Shown: positions 16,962-30,511, counted from the first letter of the stretch. The stretch is DNA of 64,000 nucleotides from an uncultured delta proteobacterium (GCA_963790475.1 CAWBOS010000006.1:1-64000), one strand, 5' to 3'. Notes: generated from the letters alone by a model not told the origin. Numbers and translations are program-made.

Positions 16962-17106
16962 AAAACAAAAACCCCATCTCCTTTTCAAAAAAATGGGGTC
17001 TTGTCGGTTTACTTCATGGACCAGGCTTTCGTTTGGGGTTGCCGGAATCATTAAAGATAGAAATCTAATTTTAATAATATAAATCATAACAAACAGTTAA
17101 AGTAAA
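16962..17106 (-). repeat. Array element copy A (promoter + conserved core + terminator)
   Basis: TTTACT-19-TATATT ... GAAAGCCTGGTCCATGAAGTAAACCGACAAGACCCCAT..ATGGGGTTTTTGTTTT. Confidence 0.85.
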
Positions 17107-17207
17107 TCCGGTTTCAGTAAGGCTAAAGGCTGAAGGCTGTTAGACTGAAGGATAAGAAGAGCCTTCTGAATTAAAAATTTGGTGAAATTTAGATACATCA
17201 TACTAAT

Positions 17208-17765
17208 TTATTTACGTTTCCTTGAGTCTTTCCTCACCCCATATCGGGCTTGCTTCTCCTTGAGATAGAATCCAATTTTTCGTTTGGGCTTTTGTGGCGG
17301 TGCCATGAGCTGCCGGATTGCTTCAAAGACGATCTTGAACTGGCCATCATACTTTTTCTCCAGGTCATCCAGACGTCTGGCCAGATCTTTGTGGGAACCC
17401 ATGATCTCCCTCAGCCGGGTAAAAGTTCTCATAATCTGGATATTCACCTGAATAGCTCGTTTACTATTGAGAATGCTGGAGAGCATGGCTACTCCGTTTT
17501 CAGTGAAAGCATATGGTAATTTTCGGGTACCTCCCCATCTTGATGTTCCAAACTGGAAGATCAAGTTTTTAACTTCTTGATTTGTCAATTGAAACATGAA
17601 ATCCTCAGGGAACCGATCCAAGTTCCGCCTGACTGCCCTATTAAGATTCCCCGTGGTAACCCCATAGAGAACAGCCAAATCACGATCAAGCATGACCTTT
17701 TTGCCTCTTATAAGAAAGATTTTACTTTCAATGATTTCCTGCGGGATTAAATCCTTTTCTTCCAC
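17208..17765 (-). CDS. ORF6N-domain protein (copy 1)
   Basis: [47 protein letters not shown] start after GAGGAGG. Confidence 0.9.
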
Positions 17766-17918
17766 CGGGATCCTCCTCAAATGACTTTTCTGGCTAACAC
17801 ATAATACTTTCGACGGCCCCACAAGTCTAACTTGATGTCGCAAAATGCGACTTCAAATAATCAAATTTTCCGCCCCCTTTCATCTTTGATATTCCAAATT
17901 AGAATCTCAAAGATTTCA

Positions 17919-18078
17919 TAACAAAAACCCATCTTCTTTTCAAAAAATGGGGCCTTGTCGGACTGCTTCATGGACCAGTCTTAAAAAGACAGGATTCGAG
18001 GATTCTAGGGTCCAAGGGGTTAAACTCCTATGTCTTTCATTCGAATGAACAATCTAAAGCATAACCTGTTAAAGTCGA
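17919..18078 (-). repeat. Array element copy B
   Basis: Degenerate promoter (16-bp spacer) plus CTGGTCCATGAAGCAGTCCGACAAGGCCCCAT..ATGGGTTTTTGTT. Confidence 0.85.
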
Positions 18079-18085
18079 CCTTTTC

Positions 18086-18136
18086 TGGTCATCTGGTCTA
18101 TCTAGTCTATCAGGTCTATTTAGTCTATCTGGTCTG
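18086..18136. repeat. 9-bp short tandem repeat (tggtctatc-like)
   Basis: tggtcatc tggtctatc tagtctatc aggtctatt tagtctatc tggtct; related tracts at 18812-18840 and 26733-26762. Confidence 0.8.
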
Positions 18137-18694
18137 GGATCTCATCTTAAAATTCTTTTTCCTGCCATACCGGGCTTGTTTTTCCTTGAGGTCGAATCCA
18201 ATCTTTCGTTTGGGTTTAATCGGCGGAGCCATAAGCTGCCGGATGGCCTCAAAGACCACTTTGAACTGAGCGTCGTATTTTTTCTCCAAGGTCTCGAGTT
18301 TCCGGGCTAGTTCGGCATGTGATAAAAGCATCTGCCTTAAGCGGACAAAAGCCCGCATGATCTCTATATTTACCTGAACGGCGCGCGGGCTGTTTAATAC
18401 GCCTGAAAGCATGGCTACCCCTTGCTCTGTAAAAGCGTAGGGCAGATATTTTGCGTGTCTCCCTTTCTCTAAGATTCCAAATTGGAATCTTAGAGATTTA
18501 TATTCCTCTTGGGTCAATTGGAACATAAAATCCTGAGGAAATCGATCCAGATTCCGTTTTACCGCCTTATTTAAATTCCCTGTAGTGACCCCGTAAAGTT
18601 GGGCCAAGTCGCGGTCTAAAATTACCTTTTGGCCCCGCAAGAATAGGATAATGTTTTCTATTCGGTCAATTGGGATTATAGATTTTTCTTCCAT
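18125..18694 (-). CDS. ORF6N-domain protein (copy 2)
   Basis: Same motifs as copy 1; tail [28 protein letters not shown]. Confidence 0.92.
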
Positions 18695-18734
18695 TATCGT
18701 ACCTTAAATTGGATTAAAATTAATATCGGTCAGG

Positions 18735-28931: not shown

Positions 28932-28959
28932 GATTAAGAAAAACTTGCGATAATGATGG

Positions 28960-28995
28960 AAAGGGCAGGCTGCTTATAAGGGCCTGCCCTTTTTA
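28960..28995 (+). terminator. Intrinsic terminator
   Basis: AAAGGGCAGGC..GCCTGCCCTTT followed by a T tract. Confidence 0.75.
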
Positions 28996-29136
28996 ATTGG
29001 TTCACTATTCTGGATAGCCGGTCTATATTGTTTGACAAAAGACGGGACGTTGAAACCTTTACACCATTTTTCCCCCGTTGGAGCGACTACTTTTGATTCA
29101 ACCCCAATCCTTTTCATTCTTCTTATCATCCACCCT

Positions 29137-29331
29137 AAAACAAAAACCCCATCTTCTTTTTTGAACAATGGGGCCTTGTCGGACTGCTAAATGGACCCGG
29201 CCTTCAGGTTTGAAAGCTGTCAGGGATCAGCGTTCAGCCTACAGAGAAAACCTGGCAAAAAGACTGATGCTGAACCTGATGGCTGCCGTCTATTTGCTCT
29301 ACTTTAAACCCTGACAAACAGTTAAAGTCAA
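29137..29331 (-). repeat. Array element copy G
   Basis: TTGACT-19-TAAAGT ... GAAGGCCGGGTCCATTTAGCAGTCCGACAAGGCCCCAT..ATGGGGTTTTTGTTTT. Confidence 0.85.
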
Positions 29332-29398
29332 TTTTTGTCAATGTCCACTCACTTTCCCCCTGCGCGGACCATCGCCGGGTGAAAACAGGCCTGCCCGC

Positions 29399-30346
29399 TT
29401 AACCAATTTCCAGCACCCGGGCCGCATTATCATACATCCATTTGCGATAGATGGTTTCGTTTCTGGTCAGCTCTCTGGTTTCCTCGATGATGGTTTTCAA
29501 AGGCACCCCCTGGGTTCCCCAGCCGCTGGCGAAAATGATCTGGTCCTGAAGGCCCCTGTTCCCGCTTTCGATCAGCTCATCATACCCGCTTCCGGGACGT
29601 TTGACGTTCCTCGGTCTCTGACAGGAAAGATCGATGCAAACGTTCCTGTGCCTTCTGGCTACGGCCACCAGCTCTGCCATCCAGGGCCAGCCTCCCAGGC
29701 CGGCCACGATGGTCAGTTCTGGAAAATCGCAGGCGATTTCGTCCAGATGGCTTGGCCGGCAAAGGTCCATGGGCCGGTCCGTGTAAAGATGCAGGGAAGT
29801 GGTAATGCGCGCCGGAACGTCCAGTTCCACGCATTTGGCGTAAAAGGGGTAATACTTTTTATGATTGGATGTCAGATTTTCTCTGAAACCGGAAACCACC
29901 ATTCCTTTGAAGCCCATCTCTTTGACGGCTTGTTCGAATCGCTTGATATTGGACATGCCCTCATGGGGACTGCTTCTGAAAAACGGGATCAGCCGGTCGG
30001 GATACTCCCCGGCGATTGCCGCCGTATCCTCAACCGAAGCCCACATCCCCGTGGTACCGATAACAGCCCTGGTCACACCCGCATCATCAAGCATTTTGAT
30101 GAACTCCTGGTGGGTCATAGTCTTTCCCAGGTAATTCTCAGCCACCATCACCGCCACCTCGATGTATCCTTTAGTCCGGACAGCTTCTTCAAGCTCTTCC
30201 ATGGTCATATTCAGCCGTTCGGCCCAGGCATGCCCGAACTGGGCAAAATAGCCCCGATGCACAAATCCGCCCCCGGATTTTAACAGGGCAATGGTTTCTT
30301 TCTTGACCTCTTCAGTCGGAGAGTCACATTCAAAATCGATAATCAT
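29399..30346 (-). CDS. Amidohydrolase family protein (Amidohydro_2-like)
   Basis: YPFYAKCVELDVP, LDEIACDFPELTIV, N...DLS, NAARVL; several usual metal-binding His/Asp appear substituted. Confidence 0.8.
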   Translation of the reverse strand: MIIDFECDSPTEEVKKETIALLKSGGGFVHRGYFAQFGHAWAERLNMTMEELEEAVRTKGYIEVAVMVAENYLGKTMTHQEFIKMLDDAGVTRAVIGTTGMWASVEDTAAIAGEYPDRLIPFFRSSPHEGMSNIKRFEQAVKEMGFKGMVVSGFRENLTSNHKKYYPFYAKCVELDVPARITTSLHLYTDRPMDLCRPSHLDEIACDFPELTIVAGLGGWPWMAELVAVARRHRNVCIDLSCQRPRNVKRPGSGYDELIESGNRGLQDQIIFASGWGTQGVPLKTIIEETRELTRNETIYRKWMYDNAARVLEIG

Positions 30347-30443
30347 CTTTCCTCCTTTCCTAAACCACAGCCGGCTTCCTTACAAACGGTCATTTTTATG
30401 GTTGCAAATTCGGTTCCGAAAACTCCCTTCTCATCTGCCCAAT

Positions 30444-30511
30444 AACAAAAACCCCATCTTCTTTTTAAGAAATGGGGTCTTGTGGGTTTGCTTCTTGGTC
30501 CAGCCTTTCGG
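30444..30511 (-). repeat. Array element copy H (core + terminator)
   Basis: CCCGAAAGGCTGGACCAAGAAGCAAACCCACAAGACCCCAT..ATGGGGTTTTTGTT. Confidence 0.85.

Follow-up and report, generated by a model that had tools for sequence, protein, structure and literature searches.

A repeated promoter-leader-terminator element as a candidate small-RNA module of defence islands in an uncultured delta proteobacterium

We describe a short non-coding element that recurs in a 64,000-nucleotide stretch of DNA from an uncultured delta proteobacterium (GCA_963790475.1 CAWBOS010000006.1:1-64000, the whole of which is called the window here). In its complete form the element comprises a promoter-like block, a leader and a core of about 80 bases that ends in a hairpin and a T run, and seven cores punctuate an array of genes between positions 16,962 and 30,511. 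We somewhat favor the view that it is a multiplied small-RNA/terminator module of defence islands, which would provide a lineage-specific punctuation of transcription at the RNA level. This view builds on the sequence anatomy, copy number, distribution and contexts of the element; transcription, termination, read-through and any action of an RNA in trans are predicted from these. An earlier interpretation of the same DNA, made without database searches (the sequence-only reading), had proposed a gene-capture or shuffling platform with the element at its junctions.

A covariance model of the core, R1, was built from the 18 copies of the source genome (G000), in which the window lies on contig C6. 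Seven co-oriented cores of 75-87 nt were found on the minus strand of the window, with R1 scores of 76-95 bits. A repeat search recovered all seven in register as family D3, at 16963, 17917, 23605, 25235, 26528, 29138 and 30442, with 60-77% identity to the reference copy over 66-91 nt. The two methods therefore agree on the seven same-orientation copies that the sequence-only reading had placed in the array. The consensus given in that reading matched three copies at up to three mismatches and nothing in 100 shuffles. It had also seen no copy elsewhere in the window, and neither nhmmer nor R1 gave a further strong core in bases 1-64000; other matches on C6 were found at 122 kb and 308 kb. Its description of the copies as mosaics was borne out too, as strings common to particular copies were visible in the repeat search and in the alignment. 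The copies are listed below.

16951..17037, minus strand: core copy 1 (R1, 95 bits; terminator hairpin in the fold, z -2.2; short form, promoter block about 70 nt upstream)
17907..17991, minus strand: core copy 2 (R1, 76 bits; fold z -2.9)
23595..23679, minus strand: core copy 3 (R1; without a promoter block; begins about 20 nt past the stop codon of the HTH-M78 gene)
25223..25309, minus strand: core copy 4 (R1; promoter block at 25350-25385)
26517..26602, minus strand: core copy 5 (R1; long form; promoter block at 26691-26726; upstream gene divergent)
29126..29212, minus strand: core copy 6 (R1; long form; promoter block at 29296-29331; downstream gene convergent, a putative free-standing short transcription unit)
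30431..30516, minus strand: core copy 7 (R1; without a promoter block; behind the stop codon of the S15 peptidase gene)

Read along the minus strand, the core starts with about 35 conserved unpaired bases, GAAAGGCTGGTCCATGAAGCAGTCCGACAAGA, followed by a hairpin and then the T run (U-tract). The hairpin is formed by CCCCAT and ATGGGG and is lengthened by A-U and G-U pairs; with the U-tract it would make an intrinsic terminator, at which transcription is predicted to end. RNAalifold gave this hairpin as the sole predicted structure of the cores, and hairpin and U-tract were present in the folds of all seven window copies. In a set of 112 copies drawn from the source genome, its relatives and metagenomes, the terminator helix was 94.9% paired, with nine cells changed on both sides, and none of 500 shuffles reached as high. 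The stretch of about 35 nt before the hairpin had a high information content in the same set, and neither RNAalifold nor pair counting supported a helix within it. Two further helices were considered and rejected, one between CCGGC of the leader and GCUGG of the core (80.6% paired, one cell changed on both sides, no better than shuffles) and an outer one, the register of which was not fixed between copies. No anti-terminator pairing was conserved across the cores. A small peptide encoded in the core was rejected as well, because ATG is absent from three of the seven window copies and the loop varies in length, its indels shifting the frame. In two decayed modules of the source genome (C12:1469198 and C13:2335), promoter block and leader are followed by a core that has lost the 3' arm of its terminator, which shows that copies also erode.

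The sequence-only reading did not recognize the element as a described family, and an Rfam scan agreed: no core was matched at the gathering score, and nothing overlapped a core at E values up to 5. A tRNA gene at 7836-7909 was the only Rfam match in the window. Among the listed papers on ORF6N and on Smithella small RNA, none dealt with an element of this kind, and its absence from print rests on these listings and on Rfam.

The block found upstream of many cores consists of TTGACTTTAAC, about 6-7 variable bases, TATG, one base and a T/A-rich hexamer. We interpret it as a probable sigma-70-type promoter with an extended -10, because it directly precedes ordinary genes and ORF6N_b, one of three ORF6N genes of the array, and because the tRNA promoters of the source genome (TTGaCT, 17 nt, TAnnnT) share its TATGG motif. 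Six occurrences had been claimed in the sequence-only reading. The window holds five strict blocks, with the -35 at 17106, 18804, 25385, 26726 and 29331, and a degenerate one at about 18078; the block at 18804 has no core behind it. The following features belong to these blocks or lie next to them.

17071..17106, minus strand: promoter block of copy 1 (TTTACT, 17 nt, TTTATA, with TATG just before)
18045..18078, minus strand: degenerate promoter block of copy 2, read in the sequence
18769..18804, minus strand: promoter block and 5' part of a short leader, without a core, running directly into ORF6N_b
18084..18135, no strand assigned: 9-bp tandem repeat, 5.9 copies (Tandem Repeats Finder [TRF]; repeat family D7), directly upstream of a promoter block
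18820-18838, no strand assigned: second short 9-bp array (repeat search)

With a motif allowing two substitutions, a promoter-like block was present within 300 nt of 46 of 83 cores. A stricter motif found it at 27 of 88 copies, and the distances to the core fell into two clusters, 65-76 nt for the short form and 99-123 nt for the long form. The spacer of the promoter contains a palindrome, TAAC-N5-GTTA. Blocks of 36 nt including the spacer also stand before genes without any core at C1:37019, C10:1553603, C10:1914736, C1:103086 and C1:104158 of the source genome, before ordinary genes and also before an ORF6N fragment; two of the ordinary genes have N termini that, judged by eye, resemble those of a prolidase and of ThiE. 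The promoter block is therefore a repeated module in its own right. The 9-bp repeats, with a plus-strand consensus of about TCTGGTCTA, lie directly upstream of the -35 in some blocks and were also seen at C10:276950-277028, C6:307660-307738 and C12:905380-905431. They occur mainly in the source genome and are rare at the copies of relatives, as judged from AGACY counts, and they might be an upstream binding array.

The context of the 18 copies in the source genome was judged by hand. All three copies with a divergent upstream gene carry a promoter block (26517, C11 227k and C12 323k), and so do all three with a convergent downstream gene (29126, C10 277k and C12 905k). Having their own promoter block and a convergent gene downstream, the latter three would be free-standing short transcription units. 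Promoter-less copies lie close behind a co-oriented gene at 23595, 30431, C1 109k, C12 606k and C12 904k, and the genes ahead of them are HTH-M78, S15 peptidase, a Gp49/HTH pair, MaoC and CinA. At three other promoter-less copies (C10 604k, C12 286k and C6 122k), the closest upstream open reading frame runs in the opposite direction and gave no Pfam match. By our reading of these contexts, each of the 18 has a plausible source of transcription, so that every copy should be transcribed and should form an RNA 3' end.

Most copies keep company with mobile or defence-type genes. Toxin-antitoxin, restriction, Fic, ORF6N or insertion sequence (IS) genes adjoin 13 of the 18, and the other five have metabolic genes only; a co-oriented gene follows 15 of the 18. 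One array in a relative, L065, has 11 cores in 12.7 kb together with six ORF6N genes, ParE/HTH, MNT/HEPN, DUF6530 and MaoC, and arrays of other relatives contain PIN, AbiEii, Fic, DUF4143 ATPase and methylase genes. Many array units carry their own promoter block. An ORF6N gene was found within 400 nt upstream of 19 of 83 cores and downstream of 23 of them. At least 11 of the 23 downstream ORF6N genes have their start codon about 9-35 nt past the element, with only a ribosome-binding site between. Since this leaves no room for a promoter, such genes would be reachable by read-through alone, and the terminator would act there as an attenuator.

The element is spread widely in one lineage. The covariance-model search gave 18 strong cores in the source genome, 7 in the window and 11 on contigs C1, C6, C10, C11 and C12, besides four weak matches. 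Cores were present in 17 of 21 genomes of the lineage and in three of its four genera, often in arrays (the order-level and class-level genome sets are these same 21 genomes). Within the genus, all 13 other genomes had from 1 to about 27 matches at E values up to 0.001, and 12 of them still had a match at E values up to 1e-6; in the genus, at least seven genomes contain arrays of co-oriented cores. Four of seven genomes from the other three genera of the family had 1-3 matches, whereas 20 other families of the phylum, each represented by one genome, had none. In metagenome contigs, a motif scan and then R1 detected 35 cores at 27 loci, frequently with two or three on the same contig; viral contigs gave no match to the core motif. 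This dispersal, with 11 strong copies beyond the window on five contigs and five copies beside purely metabolic genes, goes against the capture platform of the sequence-only reading. Four of the five copies in other genera are complete short-form modules (promoter block, leader of about 45 nt and core) that align with those of the source genome, and their neighbouring genes are unrelated. Because complete modules align across genera beside unrelated genes, the ancestral state was probably a small-RNA gene kept by selection.

These observations can be joined in one scheme. The promoter-bearing copies, about half, with the block about 70 nt (short form) or about 120-135 nt (long form) upstream, would be self-contained small-RNA genes giving RNAs of about 110 or 165 nt with a common 3' domain, and at the promoter-less copies the core would serve as 3' untranslated region and terminator of the co-oriented gene just upstream. 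An ancestral small-RNA gene would have multiplied in the genus, within islands where ORF6N genes (candidate defence genes of the PDC-S05 type) stand together with toxin-antitoxin and restriction genes. Where the core stands before an ORF6N gene that starts 10-35 nt past the U-tract, it could act as an attenuator or as an insulator between units, and the seven window copies would be the boundaries of such units. Rearrangement would be a by-product of homologous recombination, for which the copies are suitable substrates since they are long, alike and co-oriented, and not the work of a dedicated capture mechanism.

Several results weigh against this scheme. Hfq was not found in the source genome, which is rated 100% complete. 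A target scan with duplexfold over 5,818 start regions gave a mean of -22.6 kcal/mol (standard deviation, 6.6 kcal/mol) and no outlier, and the 12-nt perfect matches in it were within chance by our own estimate. The start regions of ORF6N genes paired worse than the background, with a mean of -12.7 versus -17.1 kcal/mol. Position 2 of the -10 hexamer (TTTAAA or TTTATA) is not the usual A, a consensus promoter scan did not flag the block sites, and the terminator rule of the consensus scan flagged just two of the seven window cores. Similarity extends about 20-60 nt past the U-tract in several copies, which one would not expect of a pure RNA gene and which agrees with copying as DNA. Finally, orthologous sites differ in whether they have a core: it was found before a thiamine pyrophosphate (TPP)-enzyme gene in three of five genomes and before the PPDK gene in one of seven, the source genome only.

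A different account would be that the modules persist on account of recombination between them, by which the flanked defence genes, each with regulation of its own, are inserted, deleted and swapped, the array being a hyperplastic region of a cellular chromosome. It resembles what is known of the PeSL (promoter-early stem-loop) cassettes of T4-type phages, which combine a sigma-70 promoter with a stem-loop, recombine and form mini-circles (Arbiol et al. 2010, PMC2839356; Comeau et al. 2014, PMC4122927). We consider this account unlikely, even though several comparisons between relatives speak for it. The interval from the S15 peptidase gene to the thioesterase gene has the same flanks and different interiors, with core, MNT/HepT, core, Zn-dehydrogenase and core (two units) in the relative G010 and five units in the source genome. 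A block of core copy 3, HTH-M78 and HigB (23604-25175, 90% identical) lies in a near relative beside the orthologue of ORF6N_a and upstream of Prc, and one of its ends coincides exactly with the U-tract. In G000, G004 and G010, MNT-HepT-core moves as one unit, and the homology between G000 and G010 at the TPP-enzyme gene begins at the 5' edge of the core. The amidohydrolase gene, which lies between two cores in the source genome, stands outside any array in G010 and G011, and the homology spans the gene from the stop codon to a point 21 nt ahead of the start. What holds of the capture platform is thus that the element bounds small units of varying content, that arrays occur in relatives as well and that a block ending in a core was relocated. 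However, the other ends of the moved blocks lie 40-180 nt from cores, the 11 further copies are dispersed singly, some of them between housekeeping genes, and the other genera have the module at 1-2 copies, where there is nothing to shuffle. Three core-free loci of relatives, 34 kb in total, map gene by gene onto different contigs of the source genome, their order being broken at almost every gene. The loci L115, L116 and L117 (G010 and G011) showed about 80-90% gene identity to G000 in blocks of about 1 kb on different contigs, with hardly any shared order. The Prc loci of 41 species have Prc alone in common; cores occur at two of these loci, and so little synteny is kept that the loci cannot be compared one by one. 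Because gene order is broken without cores too, break points at cores do not show that the cores cause them; some end points of rearrangements lie at core edges. The lost order within the genus could reflect real fluidity, confusion of paralogues or assembly problems. A search for the integron integrase IntI (TIGR02249, cut-off of 265 bits) gave 25 tyrosine-recombinase-like matches genome-wide, the best at 105 bits and none on C6, and attC-like features were not seen by eye; the sequence-only reading had likewise reported neither an integrase nor an attC structure in the window. Recombination between core copies is likely, but a special part of the cores in it is unsupported, and no capture machinery is evident. 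A related and equally doubtful proposal would make the module the dedicated control RNA of ORF6N (PDC-S05-type) genes, with abundant small RNA and rare read-through, much as in a type III toxin-antitoxin locus or in the c4/ant immunity circuit of P1; since the same module would close each unit, units could be exchanged for one another and would form a PeSL-like hyperplastic defence array in a cellular chromosome. To our knowledge, such arrays have been described so far in T4-type phages only.

The similarity past the U-tract and the presence/absence pattern at orthologous sites keep another account alive, in which the element is a non-autonomous mobile DNA element, either similar to a miniature inverted-repeat transposable element or moved by an unlinked transposase, with an incidental promoter and terminator and a functionless RNA. 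It would also explain why a core is cleanly absent between an intact promoter-leader and ORF6N_b and why copies per species of one genus range from 0-1 to about 27; IS200-type Y1 transposase genes stand next to two copies, and the array has an IS110 gene at its end. Yet no terminal inverted repeats surrounded the module in the three copies examined, and a target-site duplication is not definable because filled and empty sites are not alignable upstream. The orientation of the element always follows the neighbouring genes, unlike random insertion, its 35 unpaired nucleotides are conserved across genera, and it is missing from the viral contigs. We give this account a low probability. It is quite improbable, on the other hand, that the element is a conditional leader, that is, a riboswitch-like or protein-controlled attenuator in which a ligand or a protein, possibly ORF6N itself, would attach to the conserved unpaired stretch and govern the choice of termination or read-through into the following gene. 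The succession of promoter, leader, terminator, ribosome-binding site and ORF6N gene, with no room for a second promoter in at least 11 of 23 cases, would suit such a leader, as would the co-oriented genes downstream of most copies in the source genome, and the spacer palindrome and the upstream 9-bp repeats could be operators. But no conserved anti-terminator pairing was detected, three copies have no co-oriented downstream gene, the downstream genes are mutually unrelated, HigB has its own predicted promoter past the core, and Rfam gave no riboswitch match. The small-RNA/terminator module remains the reading that we prefer.

The genes between the cores were identified by Pfam, with defence matches by PADLOC and phage families by PHROG.

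14793..16052, minus strand: IS110-family transposase gene (Pfam), just beyond the array and adjoining the ATPase fragment
16482-16700: ATPase fragment of 72 amino acids (Pfam)
17208..17843, minus strand: ORF6N_a (ORF6N domain; PADLOC PDC-S05; PHROG anti-repressor)
18125..18694, minus strand: ORF6N_b (Pfam, PADLOC and PHROG)
19681-21837, plus strand: Prc protease gene (Pfam), between core copies 2 and 3
22040-22789, minus strand: acyl-ACP thioesterase gene (Pfam), between core copies 2 and 3
22918..23454, minus strand: ORF6N_c (Pfam, PADLOC and PHROG)
23689-24807, minus strand: HTH-peptidase M78 gene (Pfam; PD-Lambda-2_B-like), which moves with the HigB-like gene and core copy 3
24788-25135, minus strand: HigB-like toxin gene (Pfam)
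about 25534..25661, minus strand: 3' remnant of an ORF6N gene (repeat families D4 and D9), just upstream of the promoter block of copy 4
25764..26305, minus strand: pair of MNT nucleotidyltransferase (PDC-S09-like) and HepT genes (Pfam, PADLOC)
27120..28931, plus strand: acyl-CoA dehydrogenase gene (Pfam), on the strand opposite to the cores
29399..30346, minus strand: amidohydrolase gene (Pfam)

The cargo named in the sequence-only reading was largely recovered by Pfam, namely, the three ORF6N genes and a remnant, HigB with HTH-M78, MNT/HepT, Prc, the thioesterase, the acyl-CoA dehydrogenase and the amidohydrolase. The pair of ATPase genes that it had placed beyond the first copy was reduced to the fragment of 72 amino acids, and the IS110-family gene had gone unmentioned. 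Short ATPase-like fragments (16143-16700) adjoin this gene at the end of the array. The ORF6N proteins matched PDC-S05 over their full length (E value, 1e-59) as well as PHROG anti-repressor families. One PDC-S05 member protected Escherichia coli against T7, T5 and T4, by about 1,000-fold for T7 and T5, according to a preprint (bioRxiv 10.1101/2024.09.26.614923).

A perfect palindrome of 25-31 nt lies inside the ORF6N coding sequence at one conserved position (about nt 191-225). It was seen in the window at 18466-18496 (ORF6N_b) and about 23238-23264 (ORF6N_c), at L065, L066, L068 and L071, and on C12 and C13 of the source genome. Its centre is always CAAWTTG; the arms vary between paralogues yet remain complementary, as in the pairs TCTCTAAGATTCCAA/TTGGAATCTTAGAGA, ACTTGAGGTCACAA/TTGTGACCTCAAGT and AGGTGGTCGCAA/TTGCGACCACCT. 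A perfect stem of at least 10 bp was present in 17 of 26 full-length ORF6N genes, versus 1 of 200 random stretches of 560 nt, and the palindrome is kept in ORF6N remnants near cores (repeat family D8). The peptides encoded by it differ (SQIVTS, FQIGIL and VAICDH), which points to selection on a DNA or RNA hairpin. Two further observations concern genes that flank the array units. In the near relative L047, 96% identical over Prc, most of the thioesterase gene is missing, and window position 21946 is joined directly to 22658. A paralogue of the S15 peptidase gene (64-65% identical) occurs in the source genome at C15:358004-359589 as two overlapping pieces, one with an in-frame TGA.

If expressed as predicted, the module would add an undescribed family of small RNAs and terminators, from anaerobic, Syntrophales-like bacteria that form an uncultured lineage at class level. 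The module goes with islands of defence and toxin-antitoxin genes, and especially with the ORF6N genes of PDC-S05. It would then show how defence islands are insulated transcriptionally and would be a cellular counterpart to the PeSL cassettes of phages. Two cautions follow for similar loci: an array that looks like cassettes joined by a repeated element is not necessarily of the integron kind, and gene order in this genus is fluid even without repeats.

Four known systems of bacteria and their phages invite comparison besides PeSL. The attC sites of integrons keep their structure while their sequence varies, and they are imperfect palindromes with RYYYAAC ... GTTRRRY ends. Like an integron array, the locus has co-oriented short genes, each followed by a repeat of about 80 bp with an imperfect palindrome, and variable content between conserved flanks; some genes seem to have no room for their own promoter, but many units carry a promoter block. 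Unlike in integrons, the sequence of the element is conserved (a consensus holds over 112 copies), its only helix is a G+C terminator stem with a U-tract, the RYYYAAC/GTTRRRY ends were not seen by eye, copies also stand singly between housekeeping genes, and, as given above, IntI did not reach its cut-off and C6 had no tyrosine-recombinase match. Type III toxin-antitoxin systems (ToxIN) consist of a promoter, a short RNA, an intrinsic terminator and a protein gene reached by read-through, the antitoxin RNA being made of tandem repeats. The order of promoter, short non-coding RNA, terminator and read-through gene and the defence setting would be shared here. However, TRF found no tandem repeats inside the leaders or the RNA, ORF6N is a protein of the DNA-binding type and not a ToxN/AbiQ-type endoribonuclease, and unrelated genes, too, are found behind the same RNA module. 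Immunity RNAs are made from leaders of anti-repressor operons, such as the c4 RNA of phage P1, before icd-ant, and the CI RNA of P4. The predicted small RNA would likewise lie upstream of, and be cotranscribed with, an anti-repressor-type gene, judging from the PHROG matches of ORF6N. It differs in that its conserved stretch is not complementary to ORF6N starts beyond the background and in that there is no phage context.

Likenesses are also found among sibling small RNAs. Families such as Qrr1-5 of Vibrio and LhrC1-5 of Listeria have their own promoter and intrinsic terminator and are sometimes arranged in tandem. The module shares with them paralogous short units with a conserved unpaired region, a terminator and variable 5' parts. 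As in a small-RNA gene, a promoter and a terminator surround a non-coding stretch by sequence, and conservation reaches beyond the flanking sequence. The differences are the copy number (up to about 27 here), the half of the copies that have no promoter and would serve as a protein gene's 3' end, the tie to defence and toxin-antitoxin islands and the lack of a detected Hfq in the source genome. Of the two analogies drawn in the sequence-only reading, the integron-like one is unsupported and PeSL is the better, with the order of its parts reversed here. In both PeSL and the present element, a sigma-70-type promoter is combined with a terminator stem-loop in a conserved unit of about 100 bp (both parts by sequence here), the copies all point the same way, the genes between them are small, variable and non-essential, and the copies form points of exchange with no dedicated recombinase. 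The order in PeSL is stem-loop, AT-rich region, promoter and Shine-Dalgarno sequence of the next gene (PMC2839356), so that the stem-loop closes off the preceding gene and transcription of the following gene starts straight from the promoter. The present element differs from PeSL in its conserved unpaired stretch of 35 nt, in its location on a bacterial chromosome (a contig of 860 kb, with no match in viral contigs) and in its many single copies. Its promoter lies 70-135 nt upstream of the terminator, and with this arrangement the module would itself make a short RNA.

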